A DNA stretch of 64,000 bases from Candidatus Roizmanbacteria bacterium RIFCSPHIGHO2_02_FULL_40_13b (GTDB taxonomy: Bacteria; Patescibacteriota; Microgenomatia; UBA1406; HO2-37-13b), in NCBI GenBank assembly GCA_001789445.1, contig MFZQ01000003.1, forward strand, positions 2,796-66,795, read 5' to 3'. Below the pieces are notes generated by a model. It searched no databases. It saw nothing but the letters and a program-made list of their open reading frames with translations, and had not been told where the DNA came from. Shown here one piece after another: positions 5,775 through 63,913 of the stretch; position 1 is the stretch's first letter, and each line of letters begins with the position of its first letter. Both the position numbers and the translations under genes were made by a program.

Positions 5775-5847
5775 CTGGGGAGCAAGGATTCGAACCTTGA
5801 GTCGCGCTGCTCCAAAGGCAGGCGTGTTACCGTTACACCACTCCCCA
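5775..5847 (-). tRNA. tRNA-Gln (anticodon UUG)
   Basis: The reverse complement folds by hand. Acceptor TGGGGAG/CTCCCCA, D stem GTGT/ACAC, anticodon loop CTTTGGA, T arm CAAGG-TTCGAAT-CCTTG, discriminator G. U1:A72 with G73 is typical of Gln. One 27:43 mismatch; no encoded CCA. Confidence 0.85.
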
Positions 5848-11720: not shown

Positions 11721-11772
11721 GTTGAATTATAACACGATTTTAGCGTAGACTGAAAGACGAAGGAGGAATAGA

Positions 11773-11796
11773 AAATTGCTAAATTGTTAAATTGTT
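11773..11796. repeat. Octamer tandem array (aaattgct aaattgtt aaattgtt)
   Basis: Three 8-nt units ending exactly at the ATG of ORF 11797. An AGGAGG box lies upstream of the array. Confidence 0.7.
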
Positions 11797-12840
11797 ATGA
11801 GTTTGTCACTTCTTTCATATTATTTTCGTAAAGTAGCTCCATTTGTTATTATCGGAGTTCTCATTTTTATTGGTATTTTTGGGATTACACGAGTATTTTT
11901 TTCGGTAAAGAAGACCGTGACGACTCCATCAACAATTAATAAACAGTTTGGTGCACTTGCACCTCCTATCTTCAACCATAAAATTGGGTATCCGGCGGGA
12001 GCTACATTTGCACTCGACAATATTGAGGGTAGGCCAACAACTGCAACAGATGAGGCGAAAGTCTATTTTATTCCCCCCATTGCGACAAAATTTGGATACG
12101 CACAAAAAATATATTCTATGGCTAAAAATGCAGGATTTAATACAAAAAACGTCTCATATTTTCTAGATGGAACACATGCAATATTTGAAGACTCCTTGCA
12201 AAAGATTACGATCGATATTTCTTACTTTAACTTTGAATATAAATATGCGTACGAAAATCACCCCGAACTTTTTTTACGTCCATCAGCAATCGACGAAACA
12301 ACAGTTAAAGAACGAGCCGCTGATTTTTTCCGACTCCTTGGAAAGTATCCAAATCAACTTTCACTGGGAACCCAAAATATCACGTATATGCATTACAACT
12401 CGGAAACAAAAGGACTTGACGTAGTGACAAATCCTAAATTGGCAAATGTTGTGGAAGTTGATTTTTTCCGAGCAGATATTCAAAACGGTGAACAAACGTA
12501 TCCAGTTGTGAGTCCAAAATATTATACATCTGAAAACTATGTGGTGATGACGCTTGACATAGTCTCTCCCAAGATAATAAAAGCACAAATGCATTTCTTT
12601 GAGACTGACGATACAAATACCGGTGTTTATCCGCTTAAAACTGGGGATGAAGCATGGGCGCAGTTTCTAGCCAACAAAGGTACAATTGTGACGCCTGGTG
12701 GAGGAAGCTATCCGATAACAATTAAGAAAATGTTTCTTGCATACTATGAAACCGATGTCTACGAATCATATTTACAACCACTGTATGTCTTTTTAGGAGA
12801 AAATAATTTCGTCGCTTATGTGTCGGCCGTTAAGAATTAA
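11797..12840 (+). CDS. Membrane-anchored hypothetical protein
   Basis: Single N-terminal hydrophobic span followed by a 300-aa soluble region with no motif. Confidence 0.5.
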   Translation: MSLSLLSYYFRKVAPFVIIGVLIFIGIFGITRVFFSVKKTVTTPSTINKQFGALAPPIFNHKIGYPAGATFALDNIEGRPTTATDEAKVYFIPPIATKFGYAQKIYSMAKNAGFNTKNVSYFLDGTHAIFEDSLQKITIDISYFNFEYKYAYENHPELFLRPSAIDETTVKERAADFFRLLGKYPNQLSLGTQNITYMHYNSETKGLDVVTNPKLANVVEVDFFRADIQNGEQTYPVVSPKYYTSENYVVMTLDIVSPKIIKAQMHFFETDDTNTGVYPLKTGDEAWAQFLANKGTIVTPGGGSYPITIKKMFLAYYETDVYESYLQPLYVFLGENNFVAYVSAVKN

Positions 12841-16797: not shown

Positions 16798-16822
16798 TGT
16801 CATTCTCGCGAATGCGGGAATC
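16798..16822. repeat. Short TGTCAT-type palindromic element
   Basis: tgtcattctcgcgaatgcgggaatc forms the hairpin ttctcgc/gcgggaa. It shares termini with the elements at 37718 and 55751. Confidence 0.55.
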
Positions 16823-18878: not shown

Positions 18879-19826
18879 TCAATACCCTACTTTTTCCACC
18901 AACATCCAGTCAATCAAATTTTTCATACTTGTATCATTGTGCTTTGTAACCAATCCTCGATAGCTTCCACTGTTTTCCAAATTAAGATACGTTAGTATTC
19001 TTTTCCGTAGCCGTTTTTGCAATCTCCGCATATTCGGATATATATCACAGCCTAAAAAATGTAACCCACTTGCTACTGGAATAATCAAGCTATTTTTATT
19101 ATTTATCGTAAGTTTCAAAATATTATTGATAAAAAAAGTTATCAGAATCTCATATTCTTTAGCAATTTGACTATTCTCTGCCACCACTAAAAAATCGTCC
19201 CCATATCGAAGGTACCCTAAAGGTTTTACCGTATGTTCAACAAATCGATCTAGTTCGTTAAGATAAATATTGGCAAAAATCTGGCTGGTAAGATTACCGA
19301 TTGGCATCCCGGTACCTTTTTCCTTGACATAGTAACTATCAACAATCCTGTCTATTATTTTTAATGCACCGCGATCAAATACCTTTCTTCTTACTGTATT
19401 TTTCAGTATTTTATGATCTACTGTATCAAAAAATTTAGTTATATCAGACCTCCAAACATACCCGTATCGATATTTTCCTAATAAATATTGTGTTCGTTCA
19501 ATTGCTCTCAAAAGTCCTTTTCCTTTGCGACATGACCACACATCGTAGATAAAAGATTTATCAAAAAGAGCGGTCAAGTATTCGTTTACTAATCTATGAA
19601 CAATCCTGTCCAGAATTGGAGCTACTGAAATGGTTCTTTTTTTCTTATCAGTAACTTGAAATGTTCGATATAATCCATGTTTGTAGGTGCCTGTTACTAA
19701 ATCATGGTGTACTTGTGAAAGATTTTCCTCAAGATTATAAGTAAAAATATCCATTTCCGTAGTTCTTTTTTTCCCACGTTGAAATGCCTGCCAGGAAAGC
19801 CAAATCTGTGATAAACTTACGTCCAT
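18879..19826 (-). CDS. DGR-1 reverse transcriptase
   Basis: Carries the RT motifs, including MPIGNLTSQIFANIY (the [IL]GxxxSQ signature of DGR RTs) and the catalytic YGDDFLVV. It is adjacent to a TR/VR pair. Confidence 0.9.
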   Translation of the reverse strand: MDVSLSQIWLSWQAFQRGKKRTTEMDIFTYNLEENLSQVHHDLVTGTYKHGLYRTFQVTDKKKRTISVAPILDRIVHRLVNEYLTALFDKSFIYDVWSCRKGKGLLRAIERTQYLLGKYRYGYVWRSDITKFFDTVDHKILKNTVRRKVFDRGALKIIDRIVDSYYVKEKGTGMPIGNLTSQIFANIYLNELDRFVEHTVKPLGYLRYGDDFLVVAENSQIAKEYEILITFFINNILKLTINNKNSLIIPVASGLHFLGCDIYPNMRRLQKRLRKRILTYLNLENSGSYRGLVTKHNDTSMKNLIDWMLVEKVGY

Positions 19827-20175
19827 GGATGCAACAACTCTTCCAGTTATAATGCTGTTATTTGATGTCTATAAACAAGTTACTACAATCAGTGTAAAAT
19901 TACCTAAAAGATGGAATTATGGTCTGGGAATTAGTATTGAGAAAAGTGTTCTTGAATGTCTTGAATATCTCGTTATGGCTAAAAACGCCCCGAAGCAGTT
20001 AAAATCAGCGTATCTTATTAAAGCAAGTGCTCATTTGGAAATGATACGGTTCAAACTGCGCTTAATTCTCGAAAATAAACTTGCCAACGAAACCATAATT
20101 TTTCAAACACAGGCAAACATTGCCGAAGCTGGACGAATGCTTGGCGGGTGGCTCAAATCGACACAAAGTACCTAA
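19825..20175 (+). CDS. avd: DGR-1 Avd-like four-helix-bundle protein, opposite strand to the RT
   Basis: KLPKRWNYGLG...EAGRMLGGWLKS matches the four-helix-bundle (23S rRNA IVS / Avd) family pattern. Its ATG overlaps the RT ATG in a CATG palindrome. Confidence 0.75.
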   Translation: MDATTLPVIMLLFDVYKQVTTISVKLPKRWNYGLGISIEKSVLECLEYLVMAKNAPKQLKSAYLIKASAHLEMIRFKLRLILENKLANETIIFQTQANIAEAGRMLGGWLKSTQST

Positions 20176-35612: not shown

Positions 35613-36632
35613 ATGCGTAAGATTGCAGTTGGGTTAAATGGATTTGGGAGAATTGGAAGAGCGTTTACACGAATTGCACTGAACAATCCCGATATTGAAA
35701 TTCGAGCGATTAATACTGCGCATTCAAACACAGAGATCCTCGCCCATCTCCTTAAGTATGACTCTATCTACCGAACATTTGATAAGGATGTTAGTGCAAA
35801 AGGAGATAAGATTATCGTTGGATCCCGCGAGATTGTCTGTTATAACCACAAAAACCCTGAAGAGATTCCATGGGACCACCATAATATTGATGTCGTCATT
35901 GACTGTACCGGCGCATTTAAGACACGTGATGATTTGAGCAAGCATCTACGCGCTACCGTGCAGAAAGTTATCGTCACCGCACCTGTTTCAGATGAAACAA
36001 TTCCTCATATTGTTTTGGGGTCAAATAGTGATGGGTTTGATTTTAAAGCTAAAAATGCCGATATTATCTCGAATGCATCATGTACCACCAACTGTGCATC
36101 AATTATGACAAAAGTTCTCGATGATAATTTCAAAATAAAATCAGCATTTTTAACAACCGTACATGCATATACCAGTAGTCAAGAACTTCTTGACAACGCA
36201 TCTAAAAATGAAACACGTTCTCGTGGGGCGCCACTTTCGATTATTCCGACAACCACTGGGGCTGCGGATGCAGTATGCAAAACAACCGCGTGTGAAGCTG
36301 GAAGCTTAGGAGCTATCGCATTTCGGGTTCCCGTACCCGTCGGATCAATCTCTGATATGACGTGTCTCCTCGAAAAATCAACAACGGTTGAAGAAATTAA
36401 TGAGGTATTTAGAAAAGAGTCGGAAGGAAAACTTAAGGGAATTTTAGGATATGAAAAAACCCCGCTTGTTTCTTCTGACTATATCGGCTCGCCATTTTCC
36501 TGTACATTTGATCCTAATTACACGCAGGTTTTGAATGGAAACTTCGTCAAAATCTTCGGGTGGTACGATAATGAGTGGGGATACTCAAACCGCCTGGTTG
36601 ATTTGATAGAAAAATTATCGAAATATATTTAA
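35613..36632 (+). CDS. gap: Glyceraldehyde-3-phosphate dehydrogenase
   Basis: GLNGFGRIGR, the active site ASCTTNC, and WYDNEWGYS. Confidence 0.92.
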   Translation: MRKIAVGLNGFGRIGRAFTRIALNNPDIEIRAINTAHSNTEILAHLLKYDSIYRTFDKDVSAKGDKIIVGSREIVCYNHKNPEEIPWDHHNIDVVIDCTGAFKTRDDLSKHLRATVQKVIVTAPVSDETIPHIVLGSNSDGFDFKAKNADIISNASCTTNCASIMTKVLDDNFKIKSAFLTTVHAYTSSQELLDNASKNETRSRGAPLSIIPTTTGAADAVCKTTACEAGSLGAIAFRVPVPVGSISDMTCLLEKSTTVEEINEVFRKESEGKLKGILGYEKTPLVSSDYIGSPFSCTFDPNYTQVLNGNFVKIFGWYDNEWGYSNRLVDLIEKLSKYI

Positions 36633-37708
36633 CTCCAAAACCATACATTGTTTTGCAATTCTTTTGATAAACGGTATGTATTCGCATGGCTCAAATATCC
36701 AATATACGACTGGAGCGACTGATCGAATGTTTTTGTATCAATTTTCTCTTTTAACTTAGAAAATACTCTTCTCTTTGTCTTTGTCCGCGGCAGGCGATAG
36801 TGAGGTAAAACAATGTATCCCAAAAAATCTATTCCCCATTCAAGTCTCCGGATAATTATTTTATTTTCATGAAGTGAAAGTTTTAGGTGATTACTTAGAA
36901 AATCTCTTATTTGTTCAATTACTTGAGATATCCGGCTTTGATTTTTGAATAATATAACAAAATCGTCAGCATACCGAATATAGTGGTGGATCTTCAACCC
37001 ATGTTTGACATACTGATCAAGTTCGTTCATGTAAATATTAGCAAACACTTGGCTTGTGAGATTACCAAGAGGGATACCACGTGGAGATTCTATCGTCCCG
37101 CCTGCGACGGGACTCCAGAATGACACATTTCTTGTCATCCTGGACCGGAGGCCGAAGGCCGTAGGGATAGGATCCCAATTCACCTCAAAACTATCAATAA
37201 CCTCTGAAAGAAGTCGAATACTATTTTCATCTTGTATCTTCTTTGCAAGTAACTTTTTAAGAATCTCATGATCAACACTGGCAAAGAATTTATTGATGTC
37301 TAAATGAAGCGCCCAGCAATCTTGCGTATAGTTCTTGGAAACTTTACGGGTAAAAACTTCCAGTCGAGAAACTGCTTTATGAGTTCCTTTATTTAATCTG
37401 CATGAATAAGAGTCTGTGATAAATATTTTGTCAAAAAGTTGGTACAAATATGTGTACAACAAATGATGTACTACCCGATCCTGGACACTCGCTTTATGGA
37501 TATGTCTGCGCTTTGGATCATTAACATAGAATGATTCATATGAACCGTGTCTATATTTTTTAGTAACAAGATCTTGATATAGAGCAAAAAGATTGTCTTC
37601 AAGGTACCGCTCAAAAAGCTGGACATCTTTTTTACCACCCTTTCCCTTCCTAAATTCACCCCATGCACGAAAAACACTGTCCAGACTGACTAATGTGTTA
37701 TAATCCAT
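36629..37708 (-). CDS. DGR-2 reverse transcriptase carrying a ~28-codon repeat-element insertion
   Basis: IPLGNLTSQVFANIY and RYADDFVILF. It aligns with RT1 except for the extra NWDPIPTAFGLRSRMTRNVSFWSPVAGGTIESP. Start moved to MDYNTL because the upstream ATGACA is an element terminus. Confidence 0.85.
   Translation of the reverse strand: MDYNTLVSLDSVFRAWGEFRKGKGGKKDVQLFERYLEDNLFALYQDLVTKKYRHGSYESFYVNDPKRRHIHKASVQDRVVHHLLYTYLYQLFDKIFITDSYSCRLNKGTHKAVSRLEVFTRKVSKNYTQDCWALHLDINKFFASVDHEILKKLLAKKIQDENSIRLLSEVIDSFEVNWDPIPTAFGLRSRMTRNVSFWSPVAGGTIESPRGIPLGNLTSQVFANIYMNELDQYVKHGLKIHHYIRYADDFVILFKNQSRISQVIEQIRDFLSNHLKLSLHENKIIIRRLEWGIDFLGYIVLPHYRLPRTKTKRRVFSKLKEKIDTKTFDQSLQSYIGYLSHANTYRLSKELQNNVWFWS
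37100..37176. mobile_element. Palindromic repeat-element insertion inside RT2
   Basis: tccagaatgaca/tgtcatcctgga 12-bp inverted repeat plus a ggccgaaggcc core shared with the elements at 37718 and 55751. Absent from RT1 at the aligned position. Confidence 0.65.
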
Positions 37709-37717
37709 ATCTAAATT

Positions 37718-37763
37718 TGTCATTCCCGCGAAGGCCGAAGGTCCTCGTAAGGGGACGGGAATC
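37718..37763. mobile_element. TGTCAT/GGCCGAAGG MITE-like element between RT2 and avd2
   Basis: tgtcattcccgcgaaggccgaaggtcctcgtaaggggacgggaatc. Same termini and core as 55751-55826. Confidence 0.65.
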
Positions 37764-37795
37764 TATATAACATATGTCGAACAGTAACGAAGGTT

Positions 37796-37820
37796 CACAC
37801 ACACACACACACACACACAC
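37796..37820. repeat. (CA)12 dinucleotide microsatellite
   Basis: A 25-nt run of cacac...c read directly, between an ATG (37774) and the avd2 reading frame. Confidence 0.95.
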
Positions 37821-38179
37821 TGCGTGAGTTTGGCTTAGATATTCCCATATTCGGTGTATTATACGAGTTTTATAAATTGTTGTATCAATATACCAAGTTT
37901 TTCCCAAAAAAAGATCGGTACTCTCTCGGAAAAAAGATTGATACACTCGCACTTAGCCTAATTGAATTAGTCATTTTCGCAGGTAGCACGTCAAAAGAAA
38001 AGAAGCTTCCATATATCCAAAAGGCCATAGTTTCAGTTGACCTTATAAAAATTTTGCTTCGAGTTGCCAAAGATATTGATGCTCTTGAAGGCAAAAAATA
38101 CATCGTTCTTCAGCAAAACCTGCAGGAAATAGGAAGGCAGCTGGGAGGATGGAAAAAATCCATCCCCCCGCTTCTATAA
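37820..38179 (+). CDS. avd: DGR-2 Avd-like four-helix-bundle protein, start unresolved
   Basis: FFPKKDRYSLG...EIGRQLGGWKKS. Gap-free alignment with Avd1 extends 13 codons upstream of the first canonical start (TTG 37877), as far as the codons just downstream of the CA tract. The 37820 start (CTG) is nominal. Confidence 0.65.
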   Translation: MREFGLDIPIFGVLYEFYKLLYQYTKFFPKKDRYSLGKKIDTLALSLIELVIFAGSTSKEKKLPYIQKAIVSVDLIKILLRVAKDIDALEGKKYIVLQQNLQEIGRQLGGWKKSIPPLL

Positions 38180-38192
38180 AACAAGAAACTAT

Positions 38193-38313
38193 CTCGGAAC
38201 GACCACCTACATTCGGATTGTGATTGCCAGGATTCCAATTCGTATTGACATTCAGGTTACCGTCGGTATTGCGATTCGCATTCACGACGCGGTCCTCATT
38301 TCGCGAACCAGGC
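38193..38313 (-). repeat. DGR-2 template repeat (TR2)
   Basis: 121-bp copy of 38629-38749 encoding the Asn-rich RVVNANRNTDGNLNVNTNWNPGNHNPNVGGRSE. 26 of 34 mismatches fall at TR adenines. Confidence 0.85.
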
Positions 38314-38616
38314 GCCCATTCCAGTACCAAACGCCGTAGACACTCACCATCCTTCGATTGCTCCCCGGATTGTATTTTATTTGTCCCCCACCAGCTGGCG
38401 GGGAATCAAGCATCTGGCACGGAGTGTCTTGTTTTTCTCGTGTACGCTCAGGTACCGTCTGGTACCTAACTCTGACACGTTGTTTGAAAAACAACAATTT
38501 CGGTGTCCCTCCACCCACGGGCAGATGGAACCATTGACCTACTTTCAAAAGGTATTTTAACAGAAAAAAGGAAGTTCAAAGGAGAAAAGAAGCACAAAGG
38601 GAACCAAGTTATAAGC

Positions 38617-39399
38617 TCATTTTACTCCCTCGGAACGACCACCCATCGTCGGATAGCGATCGGCAGGCGCCCAAGCCGCATCGACGCACAGGCGACCGCC
38701 AGTAAGGCGACGCGCATCCACGACACGACCCCCACCCCGCGAACCAGGCAGACGGCTCCAGGTATTTATGTCAGGGTATACTCCTGTACGATCATGAAGT
38801 TCTTCACCAAAAACAATATATGTGTCTACTGTCATGCCATGCACACCCTGTTCTTGAATAGCCTGTATAAGTTGTGCTTCAGTAGTATCAAGATGTGGGG
38901 AATCAGCGCTGTCTTTTACCACTAGCCAACCAGTGCGTTCTTGTTCATTTTTGAGCGTATTACCGGGTTCCACCGTCCAGCTTTGCAAGTGTGGGTGAAT
39001 GACACCAAGATGTTCCCGTGTGACACCCTCTGGACGATAGATAAGCGCCCATCCGTCCTCGTGTAGTTGTTGTAGCTCTTCTTGGGAATAGTTACAAGGA
39101 GCAATCTCTACTGTAAGCTCGGCTCGGGGAGCAAGAATATTCCATCGGTTTGTCCAGTATGCTGTATACCTTTCAGGGGTTTTGACTCCTTCAGCACTGA
39201 ATTCTGTAGCAAGTGCAACGAGAGGATCAACTACAACTGCTTCTGGCGTCACATCTGATCGAGATAGTTCCTCAATTTGTCGGGCAAGAGCATTATGAGC
39301 TTGGGCTATATGAAGAAGTCCTTCAACAGCCAAGCGTTGACTATCGTTTTCAGGTAGCTCCGCAAGATTTTGTAATAGGTCCTGTTCTGCACGAAACAT
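38617..39399 (-). CDS. DGR-2 variable target protein (260 aa)
   Basis: The C-terminal ~40 codons are VR2. No signal peptide. GC-rich relative to the flanks. Confidence 0.8.
   Translation of the reverse strand: MFRAEQDLLQNLAELPENDSQRLAVEGLLHIAQAHNALARQIEELSRSDVTPEAVVVDPLVALATEFSAEGVKTPERYTAYWTNRWNILAPRAELTVEIAPCNYSQEELQQLHEDGWALIYRPEGVTREHLGVIHPHLQSWTVEPGNTLKNEQERTGWLVVKDSADSPHLDTTEAQLIQAIQEQGVHGMTVDTYIVFGEELHDRTGVYPDINTWSRLPGSRGGGRVVDARRLTGGRLCVDAAWAPADRYPTMGGRSEGVK
38629..38749 (-). repeat. DGR-2 variable repeat (VR2)
   Basis: See TR2. It ends 9 nt before the TGA stop. Confidence 0.85.
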
Positions 39400-39408
39400 A
39401 TTCTTCCT

Positions 39409-39436
39409 ATTATAACAGCCTTTTTCGACTTGTCAA
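39409..39436 (-). promoter_or_regulatory. Consensus sigma70-like promoter of the DGR-2 target
   Basis: Minus strand reads TTGACA-N16-TATAAT-AGGAAGAAT-ATG. The -10 box, leader and start are identical to those of the DGR-1 target. Confidence 0.6.
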
Positions 39437-39567
39437 ATACAGTATTTCTTATTGGAGGCGAGGAGGAGGAGATAGGGAGATGGGGTGGGGCGGAGGAGAT
39501 GAGGAGTAGAGATATACAGAGAGGAAGACTTTCTGCTTATCTCCCATCCTCTATTCTCCACTCCTCT

Positions 39568-39604
39568 CGCTCTCCCTATCCCCCTATCACCTCCTCTTCT
39601 CCTC
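39568..39604. repeat. 37-nt pyrimidine-rich repeat, copy 2
   Basis: cgctctccctatccccctatcacctcctcttctcctc. An imperfect purine-rich inverted partner lies at about 39455-39515. Confidence 0.7.
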
Positions 39605-39613
39605 CCAGTCAGG

Positions 39614-39619
39614 TATAAT
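39614..39619 (+). promoter_or_regulatory. TATAAT box 7 nt upstream of the glmS ATG
   Basis: The sequence is aggTATAATattctccATG. No SD sequence or recognisable -35 box. Confidence 0.35.
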
Positions 39620-39626
39620 ATTCTCC

Positions 39627-41387
39627 ATGTGCGGAATTTACGGTATTGCAGATAAAAATAAATTTGGGGCGCAGGATATTGTTAATGGGCTAAAACAGCT
39701 TGAGTATCGAGGATATGATAGTTGGGGAATTGCAGTGACGACCGACTCGCTTGTTAAGATTGATAAGCATACTGGAAAAATAGGAGAGGCCCGAAGTATC
39801 TTGCCAGATTCAACAACCGCAATCGGACATACTCGGTGGGCAACGCATGGTGGTGTAACTGACGAAAACGCCCATCCGCATACGGATTGCAAAAAAGATT
39901 TAGCAATAGTTCACAATGGAATTGTTGAAAACTATGAAGATCTTCGCCAAACACTCTTAAAAAAGAATCACGCTTTTACTTCTCAAACTGATACCGAGGT
40001 AGTTGTGCATTTAATTGAAGAGTATATGAAGAGCGAAAGCTTTGAGTTAGCTTGTCAAAAAGCCTTTAATGAACTCATCGGCTCAAATGCAATAGTGGTG
40101 ATGGATAATGGCTCAAAAAGCATCTTTGCCGCACGTTTGGGCTCTCCACTCGTTATCGGAAAAGGCACAGATAAATACTTTATTGCTTCTGATATAACCC
40201 CATTTTTGGACCAGACTCGAACCATATATTTTCTCGACGAGGGAGAAGCTGTGTTGATCAAAAACGACAAGTGCATTTTCTATAAAACTAAAACAGGAAA
40301 AATATTTACCCCTTTATTTGCTCAAACAACGATTACAAAAGATGCCGTCAGTAAAGGAGAATTTCCCCATTTTTTTATCAAAGAAATTTATGAACAAGTC
40401 ACTACAATTCCAAAAACAACTAAAATCGATAGAAAAGATCTTGAGAGTGTAGTTTCTGAAATAAAAAAAGCAAAAAAAATAATACTGTTAGGCTGTGGAA
40501 CTGCGTATTATTGTGCAGTCGGATCCAAATATTATTTTGCTAAGTATGGAGTTGATGTGTCGGCATACCAGGCTTCTGAATTCACCCCATTTTTAGAGAC
40601 AATAGACGAAAATTCACTCGTAATCGCTATTTCTCAAAGTGGAGAGACAGCAGAAACGCTTGAGACAGTGAAGTATTCACTTGAAAAAGGAGCTACTGTC
40701 ATTGGAGTTGTTAACGCACGAGGGTCAAGCTTAGAGCGAATCGCAACGATGGTTATTCCCGTAGGTTCTGGCCCGGAAATTGCCGTTGTTTCAACGAAAG
40801 CATTTAGCGCCCAACTCGCCGTTTTGTACCAAATCGCACGCGCATGTAACGGAGAGCTTGAGAACGGTCGGAAAGATATTGAAGAGTACGGAAAAAAACT
40901 AGGGGCGTGGCTCAATGAGCGTACTTTGGATTCGATTAAAGAGCTTGCACAGAAATTAATAAAAACTCCGCATGTATTTGTAATTGGACGTGGAGTCGAA
41001 TACCCATTTTGTTTGGAGTTTGCACTAAAAATAAAAGAAGCGTCCTATATTCATGCAGAAGGATTTGCGGCAGGAGAACTCAAACATGGAGTAATTGCGC
41101 TTATTGAAAAAGGAACTCCATGTATTGTGCTTTGTTCTCACGATGAGGAATATCCACCAATCTTATCAACTGCGGCGGAGTTGAAAAGCCGGGGAGCGTG
41201 GATTATTGGAGTTGGACCGAAAAAAGCAAAAGAATTTGATACTTATATACAAACATTTGGCGCAGGTTCTTTAACTGGACTCACTGCAGTTGTTGCGGGG
41301 CAACTTTTGGGCTATTATATGGCACTCTTTCAAGATCTTGATCCCGATAAACCACGAAATTTAGCAAAATCAGTGACGGTAAAATAA
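39627..41387 (+). CDS. glmS: Glutamine-fructose-6-phosphate aminotransferase
   Basis: MCGIYGI N-terminal nucleophile, two SIS domains, C-terminal KPRNLAKSVTVK. Confidence 0.95.
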   Translation: MCGIYGIADKNKFGAQDIVNGLKQLEYRGYDSWGIAVTTDSLVKIDKHTGKIGEARSILPDSTTAIGHTRWATHGGVTDENAHPHTDCKKDLAIVHNGIVENYEDLRQTLLKKNHAFTSQTDTEVVVHLIEEYMKSESFELACQKAFNELIGSNAIVVMDNGSKSIFAARLGSPLVIGKGTDKYFIASDITPFLDQTRTIYFLDEGEAVLIKNDKCIFYKTKTGKIFTPLFAQTTITKDAVSKGEFPHFFIKEIYEQVTTIPKTTKIDRKDLESVVSEIKKAKKIILLGCGTAYYCAVGSKYYFAKYGVDVSAYQASEFTPFLETIDENSLVIAISQSGETAETLETVKYSLEKGATVIGVVNARGSSLERIATMVIPVGSGPEIAVVSTKAFSAQLAVLYQIARACNGELENGRKDIEEYGKKLGAWLNERTLDSIKELAQKLIKTPHVFVIGRGVEYPFCLEFALKIKEASYIHAEGFAAGELKHGVIALIEKGTPCIVLCSHDEEYPPILSTAAELKSRGAWIIGVGPKKAKEFDTYIQTFGAGSLTGLTAVVAGQLLGYYMALFQDLDPDKPRNLAKSVTVK

Positions 41388-41391
41388 TATA

Positions 41392-43137
41392 TTAAAGACC
41401 AACCGAATAGAGTTTATTTCCAGAAAGTAGAATTATCTTATTCTCAAACACTACGAAATTCGTCGCTTTAACAAAAATTTGTGATTCGATTTGTTTTTCA
41501 TACGTTCCGTCTTTTGAAACTACAATTATTTTTCCATGTCTTGAATCAAGTAGATACACCCTGTCAACTTTATCATTCGTAAAAAATCGAGTAAATGAAA
41601 CATCGGCGCTATCGGGTAACGTTATACGGAAATCTGTTTTTTCACCCGATGTATATTTCAAAACAGAATCGCTTTGTAAAATATACACTGATGAATCGAT
41701 TGCAATTCCAAGCGCGCCTTTTATGAGCCCTCCTTGGCCCGACCCAAAATAGCTCGTCTTTTTTGAATATCCATCTTCGGCAACTAAATATTTATGTACA
41801 TCGCCCGCCCCACTATCTAAAACATAGATGTTTCCATTGAAAATTGTGTAATCACGCGGATTATTCCATCCTTCTTTATCAATAACTTTTTTCACTTTTC
41901 CTTCAGAATCAACGGTAATAATTCCCTTTGAAGGAATAAGCGCAGAATATACATCGTTGTAAAATGAGCCTGCAGTTGCTCCAACTAGATCAGATTTTTT
42001 TAATACTTCATTTGATTTTTTTGGAAGTGAAAGAGTGTATATTTTACCGGATTTACTATTTATTAAGACTAAATTGTCATCAATAAGCGCCATATTTTGG
42101 GCTTGTCCATTTTTTTCAATAAGAGAGAGATCATAAAACTCTTCATATTTTTTATCTTGCCGATTTGTTATTTTATTCTGTACAGTACTTATTTTTGTAG
42201 AAAGTGCGTCAGTTTCACTTTTATGTGAGTCTCCCAATTCTTTTTTCAAGGCATCAAGTGTTTCTTTTGCTTCTCCGGCGAGAATCGTTGCACGCGACAA
42301 ATTAAGTGGTGCTACATTTTGTGCTTCGTCGATCTTGGCACTTATTGTCTCTGAAGCAATCTGAATCTTTTTTTTCGCCGCTTCATCATTTCTTCTTTTC
42401 ACTCCAAAACCAACACTCCAAATAAGAACCAGGGATAAAATGAAGACAACCACAAACGTCAATTTCTTCTTGCTTGAATAGTTTTCTCCCCGTATTTTTA
42501 TCTTCTCAATAAAAGATGGGCCCGTTACAACCGTACGAGAGACTTCTTCGGTCATGGGTAAAGACTGCACAACTGCTTCCTCTTGTCCGTGTAAGAAAAG
42601 TGTAAATAATCCGACTGCACCAGCACTTTTTTCTTCGTTAAGCTTTTCATGCAATTCATCCACAGAAGAGATTGCCTGTTCACTCCCAATATAGGTCGTC
42701 AGATCAATCTCTTTGGAAATCTCTAAGAAGTTTTTTGAAAGAAATAGAAATGTATCGTGTGGATGAATTTTCCCAGAAGCCGTAGTATTCCCTTCAATAA
42801 TCGGTCCAACTACTCCATCACGACCTGCCATTACTTTTCCTCCCCCAGAAACAACAAGATATAAAATTTCTCCGACAACAAGTCCTGCGGCATATGAGAT
42901 ATCATCGTCTGACCCAAGAGATGATAACTCACGATCCAAAAGCTGTTTGAAATCAATCAACGTTTTTGGAGGGGTCACCTTGAAAAGTTCTTTGAAAGAT
43001 TCTACTGCAGTATTTACTTTCTCCTTAGAGATACCACTGGCATCAAGTGCAATCATTATATCGGTATCGCTCACGAGGGCAGATGAGACTGTTTCTGAAT
43101 CGCTTCCGCGAAATACACCAAATTCTACTTTAAACAT
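41392..43137 (-). CDS. Large hypothetical membrane protein
   Basis: One mid-protein TM span (LTFVVVFILSLVLIWSVGF). The C-terminal half looks beta-rich and repeat-like. No firm family. Confidence 0.5.
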   Translation of the reverse strand: MFKVEFGVFRGSDSETVSSALVSDTDIMIALDASGISKEKVNTAVESFKELFKVTPPKTLIDFKQLLDRELSSLGSDDDISYAAGLVVGEILYLVVSGGGKVMAGRDGVVGPIIEGNTTASGKIHPHDTFLFLSKNFLEISKEIDLTTYIGSEQAISSVDELHEKLNEEKSAGAVGLFTLFLHGQEEAVVQSLPMTEEVSRTVVTGPSFIEKIKIRGENYSSKKKLTFVVVFILSLVLIWSVGFGVKRRNDEAAKKKIQIASETISAKIDEAQNVAPLNLSRATILAGEAKETLDALKKELGDSHKSETDALSTKISTVQNKITNRQDKKYEEFYDLSLIEKNGQAQNMALIDDNLVLINSKSGKIYTLSLPKKSNEVLKKSDLVGATAGSFYNDVYSALIPSKGIITVDSEGKVKKVIDKEGWNNPRDYTIFNGNIYVLDSGAGDVHKYLVAEDGYSKKTSYFGSGQGGLIKGALGIAIDSSVYILQSDSVLKYTSGEKTDFRITLPDSADVSFTRFFTNDKVDRVYLLDSRHGKIIVVSKDGTYEKQIESQIFVKATNFVVFENKIILLSGNKLYSVGL

Positions 43138-43376: not shown

Positions 43377-43972
43377 ATGATTCTATCCTCCATTAATTGA
43401 TTAACAATCGCAACTACCTCTGATGGTCGTGGGGTTTGAAGAAATTCAATGTTTTGGTTTGTTCCAGGAGTTTGTATATTTACGTCTCCGTAATTGAATA
43501 TTGATGGGAGAAATCCAGATGACGAACCGGTGACATCAACGATTTCCTGCATCGTTGTTGCCGCTACTTCACGACTAATAATAATATTGTAATTAATATC
43601 TATTACTCTACGATTTGTGATAATTCCCACATTAAACGTCCAATCAATTATGTTTAGCAGTACATAGGAAAAAATGGATGCATACCAAAAAAAGTTGACG
43701 AATAAAGATTCTGAAATTTGTAAAAGTGGTGCCGTAAAAAGATTAACAAATAGAGGGACAAAAAGAAGAAGGACTGCAGTTACCACCCATGAGATTTGGG
43801 TTACTGGATGAGCCCGAAGTACAAGAATAACATCTTCTCCAACCTGTTGTTCTTCAAAACGAACCTTAGGCCGGTAACAAAAAGAGTGAAGCGCTTTGTG
43901 CTTCTGTGCAGTTTTGGCATCAAATACCGTTGGCATGGAACTTAGTATATACAAAAAAAGCCCTGGCGACAA
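43373..43972 (-). CDS. bPH_2/YdbS-like membrane protein
   Basis: Two TM spans followed by ITNRRVIDINYN, a PH-like segment. Confidence 0.5.
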   Translation of the reverse strand: MSPGLFLYILSSMPTVFDAKTAQKHKALHSFCYRPKVRFEEQQVGEDVILVLRAHPVTQISWVVTAVLLLFVPLFVNLFTAPLLQISESLFVNFFWYASIFSYVLLNIIDWTFNVGIITNRRVIDINYNIIISREVAATTMQEIVDVTGSSSGFLPSIFNYGDVNIQTPGTNQNIEFLQTPRPSEVVAIVNQLMEDRII

Positions 43973-44135
43973 CCCATTTTCCCTTCAGCATAAAGCTGTA
44001 AGTATCGTAGGTGCATTTCTGTTTCATGACTCTGTTCGAGATGGGAAGAGATGGTTCCAAAAATGCCAGGAATCACCAAGGCAATACGTATTATACAAAA
44101 GAGGCGCCGTTTTGTCTAGCGTAAAAAGAGAGTTG

Positions 44136-52148: not shown

Positions 52149-53548
52149 ATACCGTAGAATGCAAAAAGTGTGGGAAGAGACAAAACAGCCGCATATTTTA
52201 TGCCATCACGACCACTGTCTGAAAGCTGTTTGAGCGGATGTACTACGAGTTCACGAGTTCGAATTCCAGAAAGTGCGCCACCCAGTGCATATTCATTAAT
52301 CACATTAATTAAAAAATTAACATTATTACTATTTTTTGTAATAAATTGTTCTCGTACAAAACGAGATGTTGGAATTACCATGATTTTTGTGCCATTTGTA
52401 AATTGTTTTTCTACAATTAATGTTTGAGCTTCTTGTTCACTTTTTTTGGGAATTGGAATTTCATTTGGCGCTAAAAAAAACGTGTCTTTTTGAATCCATG
52501 ACGAATCTTGTGATTGGACAAGTACTTCTCCACCTTCTGTTGAGGATGCCCACGGAAAAACAAGTGATCCAATAGTAGCAAAGAGTGGGTCTTTTTTATT
52601 AAAATTTGTTGTTTTTACCCAGAGAGGATACGGGGCAAAAAATGACGTTGCGTTTGTAGAAAAATTTGCAACATCAGAAACAGTCGATACGACTAAATCT
52701 TTATGTAGCGTTATTCCATATTTTGAAAGTAAGTCGAAAAGGCCGTGGCGTGCGCCTGTAGAGCTTAATTTTTCTCCGATATCCACCCCATCAATCATAA
52801 AAATAATTGACTTCCCGGCAAGCAAATAATTTTCTATTGTTTCTTTTGTCCGATCAGAAACCTTGGCAGTATTCCCAAAAAAAATGAGAGTGTTAATATT
52901 ATTTCGAATAAGATCTGGAGCACCAACCTCATTCATATTTGGATATGCTATGTCTGTTTGTTTGGAAAGTGTCGACCGGATAGAATACACATCATCTGCG
53001 CGTGGATCGACTTTTGCATCAACTCCAATAAATGCAATTTTGCCAGCATCTTTTTGAGTTAGTTTATATATTGAGGAGGTAAGATCATACTCAAGACTTG
53101 CAATTGTGGTTGCTTGGGGAAGTACTTGTTTTTTTCCTCCCGATTCAACTTCTATTCCAAAATATGCGCCGCTTAGGGCATACTTATCCTTCTCAACTTG
53201 TTGAAATTGAAGTTCTGGAATTCCCGCGGTTTGTGCTTTCTTTTTAGACTTCGCATCTTTTTTTGGGTCCAAAAATTCTACTTTTATTTTTCGTCCACTA
53301 ATCCCTCGATATTCATTAACTAAATCCTTCACGTCATTTTTGAGCGGAATGAGCCGCGGTGGAATGTCTGAAGAAATAAAAACAGAAATTATTACTTTTG
53401 TATCAATTTGCTTAATAATTTTTTTACTCGCACTCGATAACGTTTGTGATTGATTTGGGGAAAGGTCAAGTCGAATTGGAAAAAACCACAAGATGAAAGC
53501 GGCGAGAATAAGAGCATGTTTAATTGTAATCTTGTTAAATTGTTTCAT
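52121..53548 (-). CDS. GldG-like auxiliary component of an ABC-2 transporter
   Basis: N- and C-terminal TM anchors. Last gene of an ABC ATPase/permease operon. Confidence 0.6.
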   Translation of the reverse strand: MKQFNKITIKHALILAAFILWFFPIRLDLSPNQSQTLSSASKKIIKQIDTKVIISVFISSDIPPRLIPLKNDVKDLVNEYRGISGRKIKVEFLDPKKDAKSKKKAQTAGIPELQFQQVEKDKYALSGAYFGIEVESGGKKQVLPQATTIASLEYDLTSSIYKLTQKDAGKIAFIGVDAKVDPRADDVYSIRSTLSKQTDIAYPNMNEVGAPDLIRNNINTLIFFGNTAKVSDRTKETIENYLLAGKSIIFMIDGVDIGEKLSSTGARHGLFDLLSKYGITLHKDLVVSTVSDVANFSTNATSFFAPYPLWVKTTNFNKKDPLFATIGSLVFPWASSTEGGEVLVQSQDSSWIQKDTFFLAPNEIPIPKKSEQEAQTLIVEKQFTNGTKIMVIPTSRFVREQFITKNSNNVNFLINVINEYALGGALSGIRTRELVVHPLKQLSDSGRDGIKYAAVLSLPTLFAFYGIWRLIKVRK

Positions 53549-54222
53549 AGTCTCTTTAACTTTTTAATTGCAGCCACTTGTAAAAGAGTTGTAAGAACAG
53601 TGAAGTATATCAATGCTCGAGTATCTAGGAGCCCCCGTTGAAATTGTTCATAATAGTAAATGGGGGAAATAATAAATAAGGAATCGTTAAGAATAGTTGG
53701 AATAAATAATAAAAAAATAACAACTACTGAAATTAAAAAAACGACAACTTGATTTTTGCTAAAAAGGGAAAAAAATTGGGTAATAGATAAAAATAGTATC
53801 GTTAAGAAAAAGGCGCCGAGATACTGACAAAGTAACAGACCAACGGTTACTTTCCCTAAAAAGAATAGACTTATTGGAACAGAGAGTGTTAATAAAAATG
53901 CAATCGTAAAACAAATTGAAACTGCAATAAATTTTGCTAAAACGATGATTTCTTCTTTTACTGGCAAACTTAAAAGCGTTTCGAGCGTTCCTGCTTTTTG
54001 TTCTTCAGAAAACACTCGCATCGCAAGTGCTGGCACAAAAAATAACAGTAGAAAAGGAATCATATCAAAAAAAGGTCGCATAGATGTATCATCGCGTAAA
54101 AAAACATCTTTCATAAAAAGAAAGTTTGCGATGATTGCAAACAAACATACGACTATATATCCGAGCGGGTTTTTAAAATAAAACGAGAGTTCTTTTTTTA
54201 TTAAATTGTTAAGTTGGTTCAT
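53545..54222 (-). CDS. ABC-2 type permease
   Basis: Six hydrophobic spans with SEEQKAGTLETLLSLP. Confidence 0.7.
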   Translation of the reverse strand: MNQLNNLIKKELSFYFKNPLGYIVVCLFAIIANFLFMKDVFLRDDTSMRPFFDMIPFLLLFFVPALAMRVFSEEQKAGTLETLLSLPVKEEIIVLAKFIAVSICFTIAFLLTLSVPISLFFLGKVTVGLLLCQYLGAFFLTILFLSITQFFSLFSKNQVVVFLISVVVIFLLFIPTILNDSLFIISPIYYYEQFQRGLLDTRALIYFTVLTTLLQVAAIKKLKRL

Positions 54223-54250
54223 TGTTAAATTGTTAAATTGTTAAATTGCT
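54221..54250. repeat. Octamer array in the 18-nt gap between the ABC ATPase and permease genes
   Basis: attgttaaattgttaaattgttaaattgct spans the ATPase stop codon and the permease start codon. Confidence 0.7.
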
Positions 54251-54921
54251 ATATGTTTCTTAAATAGTGCTTCGACCGCGCCTTTTTCCTTGGGTGTTTT
54301 TCCGTCGTAGACGAGCTTTCCGTGATCTATCATGAGAAGTCTCGTCGAAATATGTTCTACTTCAGAAAGGATATGTGTTGAGAGAAGAATGGTTGTATTA
54401 TGCGCTCGATTAAGAATTAGTTGTTGAATTTTTTCTTGTTCGATAGGATCAAGTCCACTTGTTGGTTCATCAAGAATAAGTAGTTTTGGATTACCGATAA
54501 GTGCGGCCGCAAGTCCTACTCGTTGTTTTATTCCGCGTGAGAGTTCTTCAATTCGAGTGTTTAAAACAGATTCGATGTTTACTTGTGAAAATAAGTCAGG
54601 GGGTAGATCTGCATTTTTCATACACGATACAAATTGTAAATACTCGAGCACTCTCATTTCTGGATACAGCGGATTATTTTCAGCCAAATAGCCAATTTGT
54701 GAAAGAGTTTCAATCCTGTCGGTTTTTGGATTTTTATAAAAAATAGAAACAGTTCCAGAAGTTGGAGATAGGTGACCAATCAAGAGACGCATTGTTGTTG
54801 TCTTTCCGGCACCATTTGGTCCGAGTAATCCAATAACTCCGTTTTCTTTTATCGAGAATGTAAGATCATCGACGGCACGTTTTGCGCCAAATTGAATAGT
54901 TACGTGATCGCATGTAATCAT
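54241..54921 (-). CDS. ABC transporter ATP-binding protein
   Basis: Walker A GPNGAGKTT, signature LSRGIKQRVGLA, Walker B LILDEPTSGLD. Confidence 0.9.
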   Translation of the reverse strand: MITCDHVTIQFGAKRAVDDLTFSIKENGVIGLLGPNGAGKTTTMRLLIGHLSPTSGTVSIFYKNPKTDRIETLSQIGYLAENNPLYPEMRVLEYLQFVSCMKNADLPPDLFSQVNIESVLNTRIEELSRGIKQRVGLAAALIGNPKLLILDEPTSGLDPIEQEKIQQLILNRAHNTTILLSTHILSEVEHISTRLLMIDHGKLVYDGKTPKEKGAVEALFKKHIAI

Positions 54922-55694: not shown

Positions 55695-55710
55695 GATAGT
55701 ATTATAATGG

Positions 55711-55740
55711 TTAAATTGTTAAATTGCTAAATTGTTAAAT
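55711..55740. repeat. Octamer array upstream of trmD
   Basis: ttaaattg ttaaattg ctaaattg ttaaat, abutting the MITE-like element at 55751. Confidence 0.7.
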
Positions 55741-55750
55741 AATATATACT

Positions 55751-55826
55751 TGTCATCCCCGACTCGATCGGGAATCCATGGATTCCCGCCCCCTGAAGGG
55801 GACCTTCGGCCTTCGCGGGAATGACA
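55751..55826. mobile_element. 76-nt MITE-like element with TGTCATYCCCG terminal inverted repeats
   Basis: tgtcatccccga...tcgcgggaatgaca. The internal ccttcggcc core is the reverse of the ggccgaagg seen at 37148 and 37733. Confidence 0.7.
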
Positions 55827-59640: not shown

Positions 59641-60087
59641 ATGAGAATTTACAATAAAAAAGCAACGCGGGATTATACAGTAATCGAAACCTATGAAGCG
59701 GGTATTGCGTTGCATGGGGCAGAAGTGAAGGCTGTGCGTGCGGGAAATATGAAACTTGAGGGTGCACATGTACGATTTATCGATAATGAGCTGTTTCTCG
59801 TAAATTCCGAAGTCTCGATCTACAAATTTGCTCGTCCTGAAGATTACAATCCTACACGCACAAGAAAACTACTCTTACACAAGGGGGAGATTTTACGCTT
59901 GAGAACAAAAATGAAGACGGCAAACAATTTGACTGTTATACCTATAGCATGTTATAATAAGAAGAGCTTATTAAAGCTTGAAATCGCGCTTGTTAAGAGT
60001 AAAAAGAATTGGGAAAAGAAGCGAGTAGAACAGCGTAAAGATGAAGAAAGAAAGATTGAGAAAGAAATGAAGGAATATAGGGGATGA
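59641..60087 (+). CDS. smpB: SsrA-binding protein SmpB
   Basis: NKKATRDYTVIETYEAGIALHGAEVKAVRAG and the basic C-terminal tail. Confidence 0.9.
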   Translation: MRIYNKKATRDYTVIETYEAGIALHGAEVKAVRAGNMKLEGAHVRFIDNELFLVNSEVSIYKFARPEDYNPTRTRKLLLHKGEILRLRTKMKTANNLTVIPIACYNKKSLLKLEIALVKSKKNWEKKRVEQRKDEERKIEKEMKEYRG

Positions 60088-60470
60088 ATGGTATCGACGT
60101 AGAGATCAGCACATTAAAAAATCGCCAGGCCGGACCTATCCGTTAAATAGAAAACTCTAAATGCAGAAGATAATTCTGTAGGTTACGGCTACCAATATGC
60201 ACTTGCTGCATAATCAGTAGTTAGTAACCCGTTTTCTTCACCGTTTTACTCTGTGTTCAACACGAAGAAAGCGAAAACCAATACAGAGTGCGTAGTTTCT
60301 GGATTTTATAGCTAGTTTGCCAGATTCTGCAAAGGCCCCTCGGGGTATACAAACAATTGCTTCCACCGAAAATTGATGATTATATCGGCGGAATACTAAA
60401 TCATCTATGCCTGGCTACACGATTTGCAATGTGCCTTTACGGACCCGGGTTCAACTCCCGGCATCTCCAC
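60080..60470 (+). ncRNA. ssrA: tmRNA (SsrA)
   Basis: 5' GGGGATGAATGGTATCGACG. Tag reading frame 60163-60213 is GCA GAA ... = AEDNSVGYGYQYALAA-stop. 3' T arm CGGGTTCAACTCCCG, and acceptor CATCTCC pairing with the 5' end. Confidence 0.85.
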
Positions 60471-60598
60471 ACTTCGCCCCGTCGGATTGGCGGGGCTTCG
60501 CGTGGCAAGCCACCATTTAAGAAAAAGTTGGGGTCGAGAATAATGGCGAAGTGTGTCCCGCGTAGCTCGAGCGTACGCGAGAAGCGAAGTGGGATTAT

Positions 60599-63912: not shown

Positions 63913-63913
63913 C
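63889..63913 (+). mobile_element. Type A hairpin element supplying the stop codon
   Basis: tatcccgaaacaagttcgggatgac is read in a different frame (YPETSSG-stop). The TGA at 63910 lies inside the element. Confidence 0.7.

Follow-up and report, generated by a model that had tools for sequence, protein, structure and literature searches.

The 64,000-nucleotide stretch of Candidatus Roizmanbacteria bacterium RIFCSPHIGHO2_02_FULL_40_13b analyzed here (contig MFZQ01000003.1, positions 2,796 to 66,795 of the forward strand; the whole stretch is termed the window) carries two diversity-generating retroelements (DGRs), the second of which, DGR-2, is the subject of this report. It comprises a reverse transcriptase (RT) gene, RT2, an accessory gene on the opposite strand, avd2, a template repeat (TR2), and a target gene, target2, with a variable repeat (VR2). 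We consider it probable, at roughly 0.75, that DGR-2 is an intact DGR of the type found in the candidate phyla radiation (CPR), which is gated by a simple-sequence-repeat phase switch in avd2 and is currently OFF. It is also rather likely that a large DGR clade of Patescibacteria/Microgenomates keeps avd under such a hypermutable repeat switch, by which targeted hypermutation would itself be phase-variable and form a two-tier contingency system. The original prediction for this DNA described DGR-2 as switched off or decaying. The first part of this description was borne out, as the start codon and the coding frame of avd2 do not match, and the second was not, given the diversity of VR2 and the conservation of the switch.

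The switch consists of a CA repeat located between the avd2 start codon and the segment encoding the conserved Avd core (Table 1). Reading from the ATG at 37774, 22 nt, the (CA)12 tract, and a further 18 nt precede the core motif, and the core matches the Avd profiles PF22296 (bAvd, E = 5e-18) and NF033474 (E = 6e-20). The frame of this core in the window contains no ATG, GTG, or TTG before the TTG at 37877, in agreement with the earlier remark that avd2 has no in-frame ATG. When the frame was simulated for n = 8–16 CA units, the ATG at 37774 was in frame at (CA)10, (CA)13, and (CA)16, and not at (CA)11, (CA)12, or (CA)14. An in-frame n (n mod 3 = 1) gives a full-length Avd of 133–137 amino acids, while any other n leads to a stop after about 17–22 residues. 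The window, with n = 12, therefore has avd2 out of frame, namely OFF. The tract is the sole non-A/T simple repeat within the 64-kb window, and target2, RT2, and the avd2 core are all intact open reading frames (ORFs) there.

The window was compared with 14 further locus sequences of near-identical Roizmanbacteria, which were obtained from other metagenome assemblies by exact-protein look-ups. Outside VR2, these 15 sequences differ by 0–2 single-nucleotide polymorphisms (SNPs) per 10 kb, barring a few divergent contig ends. The tract was (CA)10 in one sequence, (CA)11 in three, (CA)12 in eight including the window, and (CA)14 in three. For the (CA)10 contig, the gene caller gives a 133-residue bAvd that is in frame. 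Tract length was also found to differ inside one VR2 allele, as 12 and 14 units occur with allele A, and 10, 11, and 12 units with allele B. A tract in the 5′ coding region, copy-number differences among near-identical genomes, and a toggle between full-length and truncated products, three of the features that mark a contingency locus, are all present in avd2. As for the divergent ends, the last few hundred bases of the sequences L003 (window 41204–41430), L005 (39638–40111), and L008 (36060–36137) are approximately 15–20% diverged from the window, a pattern that suggests assembly joins with a related strain or species occurring alongside.

The same arrangement was found in related DGRs. Scans with RT2 gave 160 related loci from metagenomes and named genomes, in 148 of which a divergent avd lies directly upstream of the RT gene. 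Where the RT is approximately 51–65% identical to RT2, almost every avd has a repeat 8–20 nt upstream of the conserved "LDIPIF" core, and 49 distinct repeat-bearing loci were counted. Most of them have (CA)5–14 at this site and others poly-C of 8–13 nt, and (ACAG)9 and (ACAGG)7 each occur in a single lineage. None of the four units introduces a stop codon in any frame read on the avd strand. An ATG whose frame is open to the tract lies within 50 nt upstream in 49/49 loci, as compared with a proportion of 0.39 for positions drawn randomly from these loci. The leader peptides share homology irrespective of frame (MHTSKDI, MHTNKDI, MDQDKDI, MSNHLKDT, MSNTNRDQ, and MNHNNPG, as compared with MSNSNEG in DGR-2). 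Non-A/T simple repeats are also concentrated at the avd site, which holds 60 of the 88 detected in 924 kb of related loci. The named hosts include Daviesbacteria, Curtissbacteria, Levyibacteriota, and a Microgenomates genome that carries three DGRs of this kind, and the poly-C versions occur in Magasanikbacteria and Komeilibacteria. Two other species also showed changes in tract length, with poly-C of 11 vs. 12 nt in each: this 1-nt change is the sole difference between L076 and L079, and one of three differences, alongside a 110-nt indel, between L080 and L131. The 49 loci comprise 15 in the ON phase and 34 in the OFF phase. Two lineages, L013 (MTTKDIHTHSHT) and L044, have degenerate in-frame tracts that can be regarded as locked-ON. 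In a distant clade (RT 43–50% identity), avd mostly begins at M[ND][ED][FL]DIPIF without a repeat. The (CA) tract had been listed as a lesion of DGR-2, which is contradicted by its polymorphism (10, 11, 12, and 14 units), the in-frame (CA)10 form, and the same arrangement in 49 related DGRs. The geometry of the switch, its natural length polymorphism, the in-frame allele, and its conservation over 49 loci with four different units are directly supported. Separately, distant relatives that lack an avd repeat have (GATG)6–8 or (GGTT)12 approximately 100 bp downstream of the RT gene (L062:5111–5134, L069:3221–3252, L073:3076–3107, and L083:5090–5137). These tetranucleotide repeats were set aside, as they are not located in avd.

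A full-length Avd core ORF was retained in every OFF locus tabulated. The ratio of nonsynonymous to synonymous substitution rates (dN/dS) of the core was about 0.16–0.21 in OFF–OFF, ON–ON, and ON–OFF pairs, which are rough values with saturated dS; purifying selection on the intact cores of OFF lineages is hence directly supported. Mismatches between TR and VR are confined to TR adenines in many OFF loci, such as L011 (16/16), L023 (17/17), L026 (16/16), L043 (17/17), L046 (16/16), and L050 (16/16). Two sequences of the same species that are both OFF, L023 and L096, show 20 VR differences, all 20 at TR adenines, and another such pair, L047 and L048, shows 20 differences with 17 at TR adenines. 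The number of non-A TR/VR mismatches was not significantly different between the repeat-gated and repeat-free clades (means of 1.8 and 0.6, p = 0.18), and no difference in these counts was seen between ON and OFF loci.

The TR2 and VR2 sequences of the window were aligned without gaps at an offset of 436, giving 34 mismatches, 26 of which fall on a T of the + strand, namely an adenine of the coding (−) strand. The eight others are 38210 C/T, 38211 A/C, 38227 C/G, 38232 A/C, 38250 A/G, 38265 G/A, 38289 G/A, and 38292 G/A. These are the counts and the eight substitutions that had been reported before. The collapse of homology just beyond the pair was also reproduced, as the repeat extends 5 nt further (38188–38313 and 38624–38749) and identity is lost outside these limits. 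A third copy of the repeat was not found within the 64-kb window. With regard to the IMH/IMH* pair and downstream hairpin that direct homing in DGRs, the last 20 nt at the 3′ side are the same in TR2 and VR2, right after which the two diverge, and a conserved ATAGTTTCT motif follows the TR in relatives. A conserved motif, (G/A)TAGTTTCT(A/G)G, was observed directly 3′ of the TR, in the short gap before the avd stop codon, both in the window (38180–38192) and in most of the loci L011–L051, and may be a recognition element of the DGR RNA.

In the near-identical contigs, VR2 occurs as six distinct sequences, which are four major alleles (A–D), one A/B mosaic, and one single-site variant of A. TR adenines account for 27 of the 32 variable sites (33 adenines in 121 positions; Fisher p = 2e-16), and three of the five non-adenine sites are on the T of AAT codons. 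TR2 is invariant in all 12 contigs covering it. Differing alleles in near-clonal genomes, combined with an invariant template, are the pattern of ongoing or recent mutagenic homing, and VR2 has diversified recently. Because all these genomes have the insert in RT2 described below, this diversification post-dates the insertion by parsimony. The A-directed polymorphism of VR2 in near-clonal genomes is directly supported by these assembly contigs, and it is the very result that the original prediction had named as overturning its view of a decaying element. DGR-2 shows an RT of the DGR clade, adenine-biased TR/VR differences, a VR at the 3′ end of its target, and an Avd, as expected for a DGR.

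One DGR property, the faithful copying of VR at non-adenine positions, was not found for DGR-2. Nine coding-strand differences from TR2 are common to all six VR2 sequences (21 A>G, 22 C>T, 25 C>T, 32 A>G, 49 C>T, 64 T>C, 80 A>G, 87 G>C, and 104 G>A). All but one of the nine are transitions; three are at adenine and six at non-adenine positions (22, 25, 49, 64, 87, and 104). This fixed set includes six of the eight non-A mismatches of the window; the other two, at coding positions 82 and 103, differ from one allele to another. At the remaining adenine sites, alleles A, B, and C/D seem to have been drawn independently, and canonical full-length homing from the present TR2 should therefore have overwritten the six non-adenine positions. 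Their fixation in all alleles implies that today's TR2 was not the exact template. Outgroup TRs resemble VR2 at several of the fixed positions (GGT/GGC at codon 20–22, A at 87, and T or A at 104), so that the template behind the VR2 alleles was apparently not the same as the present TR2. The cause may be a second template elsewhere in the genome, a changed or imported TR2 module spread by recombination, template switching of the RT between the TR and VR copies of one transcript, or a misreading of the template that is reproducible. Several non-A substitutions are frequently seen in CPR DGRs, with up to 11 in one target gene (Wu et al. 2018, PMC5758913). The eight non-A differences, which had been taken as a sign of decay, are thus inside the published range; the fixation of six of them in all alleles is still unexplained.

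These fixed differences, together with the independent adenine sites and the outgroup states, are the basis of an alternative in which the adjacent TR2, in its present form, did not give rise to the VR2 alleles. In this case, a second template (T*) would have acted in trans, the TR2-avd2-RT2 module would have been changed or imported later than the alleles and then spread by recombination, or the RT would have switched from TR RNA to the VR copy. We regard this as unlikely, since no RT paralogue closer than 65% identity was detected among 5.8 billion proteins, the search for a close target2 paralogue was negative, a third repeat copy is absent from the window, and TR2 is identical wherever it is covered. 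A scan for T* with a degenerate 121-nt pattern gave no match in the genome contig collection, which apparently does not contain this species.

A second alternative assigns the tract the role of a throttle and not that of a binary switch. Slippage of the RNA polymerase or ribosome on (CA)n or poly-C would give a little in-frame Avd at any tract length, or the G/U-rich tract on the RT-sense RNA would act mainly on RT expression or on the DGR RNA. The consensus frames, approximately 1/3 ON and 2/3 OFF, look as if the DNA frame were unselected, which fits this idea. So do the A-directed VR differences of lineages that are OFF in both samples, and the position of the tract end 6–11 nt before the RT start codon in several relatives, a G/U-rich tract being present just upstream of the RT start in many. 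The idea is nevertheless improbable, since the homologous leader ATG with a frame open to the tract in 49/49 loci is expected only if the tract is translated. The four units are moreover free of stops in all avd-strand frames, and the locked-ON degenerate tracts of L013 and L044 exist. To our knowledge, slippage on dinucleotide repeats is not well documented.

The RT2 protein matches the RVT_1 family (E = 2e-22), and its motifs GIPLGNLTSQ ([IL]GxxxSQ) and YADD are invariant across 43 homologues. Comparison with RT1, the reverse transcriptase of DGR-1, located a 29-residue insertion that ends 5 residues before GIPLGNLTSQ, which corresponds to the palindromic insert of about 28 codons proposed before. 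This insert is composed of two head-to-head GC-rich TGTCAT hairpin elements (37087–37125 on the − strand and 37133–37175 on the + strand). A third such element was found between the RT2 and avd2 start codons; it and the (CA)12 tract both lie between RT2 and the Avd core, as had been stated. The hairpins are predicted at −5 to −20 kcal/mol. The insert was detected in all near-identical genomes, including those with diverse VR2, and not in the closest RT relatives. The same loop, from the ...DSF... helix to GIPLGNLTSQ, has independent palindromic inserts of 14–32 residues in more than 10 relatives, four of these inserts being TGTCAT...ATGACA doublets and the others different strong palindromes. 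An AlphaFold2 model of RT2, built with 43 sequences, reached a predicted local distance difference test (pLDDT) score of 84 and a predicted template-modeling (pTM) score of 0.79, with residues 187–210 as the only segment below 50, so that only the insert loop is disordered on a confident fold. The orthologue comparison and the structure model had both been suggested by the original prediction, which counted the insert as a lesion. From its distribution and the predicted fold, the insert is best read as a tolerated surface-loop passenger and not an inactivating lesion. The loop before GIPLGNLTSQ would be either an insertion hot spot or unusually tolerant, and copies of the palindromic element would have landed at tolerant sites, namely the RT surface loop and the head-to-head gap between RT2 and avd2. 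Elements of this "YGTCAT-hairpin-ATC" family are dispersed in the AT-rich genome, often as inverted doublets (REPIN/BIME-like), and the window contains at least 11 of them. Neither a transposase nor a named family could be linked to them, and there was no Rfam match to them in the DGR-2 region.

The weakest alternative, that DGR-2 is dying, with the avd2 start lost, RT2 broken by a mobile element, and TR2/VR2 drifting by ordinary mutation, can appeal to the out-of-frame avd2 in 14/15 sequences of the species, the F>S substitution carried by the lone in-frame allele in an invariant motif, the nine fixed differences with their eight transitions, and the outgroup TRs, which suggest that several fixed changes occurred on the TR2 side, but it is very unlikely and already largely refuted by the population data, as 27 of 32 VR2 variable sites are at TR adenines in genomes 0–2 SNPs per 10 kb apart that all have the RT2 insert, intact ORFs are kept for target2, RT2, and the avd2 core, the repeat and leader are kept in 49 loci with cores under purifying selection, relatives with same-loop RT inserts have clean A-only TR/VR pairs (e.g., L023 and L026), and the RT2 fold is confidently predicted outside the insert loop.

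Several points weigh against a repeat-gated DGR-2. The tract is in the OFF frame in 14 of the 15 sequences of the species and ON in one. That sole ON allele of avd2, with (CA)10 (L008:2821–3222), has an F>S substitution in the conserved DIPIF motif (window 37851 T>C), by which its Avd may itself be impaired; the substitution may be a coincidence or a hint of a costly ON state. The tract lengths were taken from assembly consensus sequences and not from reads, and switching was not seen directly. Among the related lineages, approximately 1/3 ON is what unconstrained drift of the frame would give, and no preference for ON is visible. The need of RT2 for Avd is carried over by analogy from Bordetella, and transcriptional or translational slippage on the tract could allow a certain amount of Avd whatever its length. 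The fixed differences, being unexplained, also leave a gap in the connection of this TR2/RT2 with the VR2 alleles observed.

According to the repeat-gated reading, slipped-strand mispairing at replication would change n in 2-nt steps, and a tract with n mod 3 = 1 would yield full-length Avd, any other an early stop. In the Bordetella system, the DGR reverse transcriptase strictly requires Avd as its partner. OFF cells would hence freeze their VR2 allele, and ON cells would rewrite VR2 by adenine-directed mutagenic homing. The population would hold heritable, stochastic on/off control of hypermutation, in which a minority diversifies and a good variant is then locked in. The slippage mechanism, the Avd dependence of RT2, and the diversification of VR2 by ON cells are the steps that we infer here.

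Literature searches on DGR/Avd with simple repeats or phase switching returned nothing relevant; Paul et al. 2017, the main CPR DGR paper, is outside that coverage, so that a prior description is not fully excluded. A repeat-controlled avd is not mentioned in Wu et al. 2018 (PMC5758913) or Roux et al. 2021. The architecture of DGR-2 is already known from the CPR group, and the repeat switch on avd appears to be undescribed.

The components of DGR-2 are collected in Table 1. Both DGRs of the window have the same minus-strand order of target-VR, TR, opposite-strand avd, and RT. The architecture termed B3, TR-(avd)-RT, was reported in 90% of CPR DGRs (Wu et al. 2018, PMC5758913), and DGR-2 shows this order with avd on the reverse strand, as in the definition of that paper. 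A DNA-inversion switch behind the avd2 orientation was considered and rejected, as there are no convincing flanking inverted repeats and the orientation is the standard one of CPR B3. VR2 forms the last ~40 codons, at the 3′ end, of target2, the ORF adjoining the cassette. Judging from the promoter sequence, a transcript covering target2, VR2, TR2, antisense avd2, and RT2 would likely start at 39436–39409. The target2 protein had no match in Pfam and NCBIfam searches; five homologues of 33–37% identity share the C-terminal scaffold PGS...GGRSEGVK with it, and a search for a close paralogue found none. Its structure model (7 sequences) had a pLDDT of 55, with the VR region below 50, which is too poor for a fold search. 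The RNA fold of the VR2–TR2 spacer gave a z-score of −2.1 against shuffled sequences, only weakly above background, and no structured RNA is claimed.

Table 1. Features of DGR-2 and related palindromic elements (window coordinates unless a locus is named).
Feature	Position	Strand	Remarks
target2 promoter (putative)	39409..39436	−	Perfect sigma-70-type TTGACA-16-TATAAT with TG; 12/12 consensus matches
target2	38617..39399	−	260-residue ORF with VR2 at the C-terminus
VR2 (variable repeat)	38629..38749	−	Repeat reaches 38624
VR2–TR2 spacer	38314..38616	−	Several GC-rich hairpins
TR2 (template repeat)	38193..38313	−	33 coding-strand adenines; 12 AAT codons and 1 AAC
avd2 core	37820..38179	+	Four-helix-bundle Avd, intact open frame; strand opposite RT2 and TR2
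(CA)12 simple sequence repeat, frame switch	37796..37819	+	Between leader and Avd core
avd2 start codon and leader MSNSNEG	37774..37795	+	Leader homologous to those of related DGRs
TGTCAT hairpin element	37718..37764	+	Between RT2 and avd2 start codons; its CAT is the ATG of the 364-residue RT2 reading
RT2, DGR-type reverse transcriptase	36629..37723	−	364 residues; NCBI annotation starts at M6, giving 359 residues
RT2 insert, 29 codons in frame	37091..37177	−	Residues 183–211; 87 nt
"YGTCAT-hairpin-ATC" copies outside DGR-2	11673–11699, 16799–16821, 55752–55775, 55782–55826, 62955–62999, 63252–63288, 63300–63323, 63890–63913		
Relatives with RT-loop inserts	L022, L023, L026–L028, L032, L039, L047/L048, L058, L076/L079, L080		e.g., L080:4511–4594, L026:4520–4609

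DGR-1 and DGR-2 are not close copies of each other, as RT1 and RT2 are 36% identical and TR1 and TR2 are no close copies, in line with the earlier view that their template repeats are unrelated. DGR-1 is of the unswitched type, with an avd1 that has no repeat tract. Its RT1 and avd1, on opposite strands, face each other with overlapping start codons (CATG, 19824–19827). Between the target2 promoter and glmS, an imperfect purine/pyrimidine palindrome of approximately 160 bp was observed at 39450–39610 (GAGGAGG.../...CCTCCTC, with 44-nt arms). An Rfam search of 36400–39700 gave nothing but noise-level, miRNA-like matches on this palindrome. Elsewhere in the window, matches at the Rfam gathering threshold were a transfer-messenger RNA (tmRNA) at 60080–60472 (+), a 5S rRNA at 43961–44080 (−), and a tRNA gene at 5775–5847 (−). 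Intergenic clusters of 8-bp tandem repeats (ATTGTTAA and variants) were also observed at 11767–11808, 53515–53548, 54189–54262, 55699–55748, and 62780–62845.

The usual distinction is between active and inactive DGRs, and it is still being asked how a useful variant, once obtained, is retained by the cell. A conserved repeat switch in avd would offer a simple genetic solution, which existing metagenomes could put to the test, since one sample yields both the tract length and the diversity of the VR. Surveys that discard DGRs with a "frameshifted" avd, or that call a truncated Avd of 100 residues, probably mislabel switchable elements as broken. The recurrent palindromic inserts point to a loop of the DGR RT that appears to tolerate about 30 extra residues, which may help RT engineering. 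If the repeat-gated reading is true, contingency loci extend from host-adapted pathogens to uncultured groundwater CPR bacteria.

DGR-2 resembles the CPR-type DGRs (Wu et al. 2018, PMC5758913) in gene order, opposite-strand avd, a single adjacent target with a C-terminal VR, an AAY-rich TR, and multiple non-A substitutions, and DGR-1 has the same layout. It differs from them in the frame-setting simple repeat at the avd 5′ end and in the palindromic RT insert. With the DGR of Bordetella phage BPP-1 (mtd-avd-TR-brt), DGR-2 shares the [IL]GxxxSQ RT, the four-helix-bundle Avd, the adenine-specific flow from TR to VR, and the identical 3′ block of the two repeats. The BPP-1 genes, however, are all on one strand with avd constitutively in frame, and their target is a C-type lectin of the phage tail fibre, whereas the target of DGR-2 is an uncharacterized cellular protein of 260 residues. 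The hairpin elements can be likened in form to the Rickettsia palindromic elements (RPE) and the REP/BIME/REPIN doublets of enterobacteria and pseudomonads, which are likewise short, dispersed, GC-rich hairpins that form inverted doublets and lie in frame without destroying a gene. Unlike these, the elements of DGR-2 have a YGTCAT...ATC frame and recur in one RT loop across lineages. Simple-sequence contingency loci are represented by Haemophilus lic1 (CAAT)n, Neisseria opa (CTCTT)n, poly-G in pilC, and the phase-variable mod genes known as phasevarions. In these loci, as in DGR-2, the tract lies just after the start codon, its copy number is polymorphic, the product toggles between full-length and truncated forms, and differing units occupy one site across lineages. 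The gene switched in DGR-2, in contrast, is an accessory factor of hypermutation and not a surface antigen or methyltransferase, so that one mutational switch would be placed over another, and it belongs to environmental CPR bacteria, whereas the known contingency loci are those of host-adapted pathogens.

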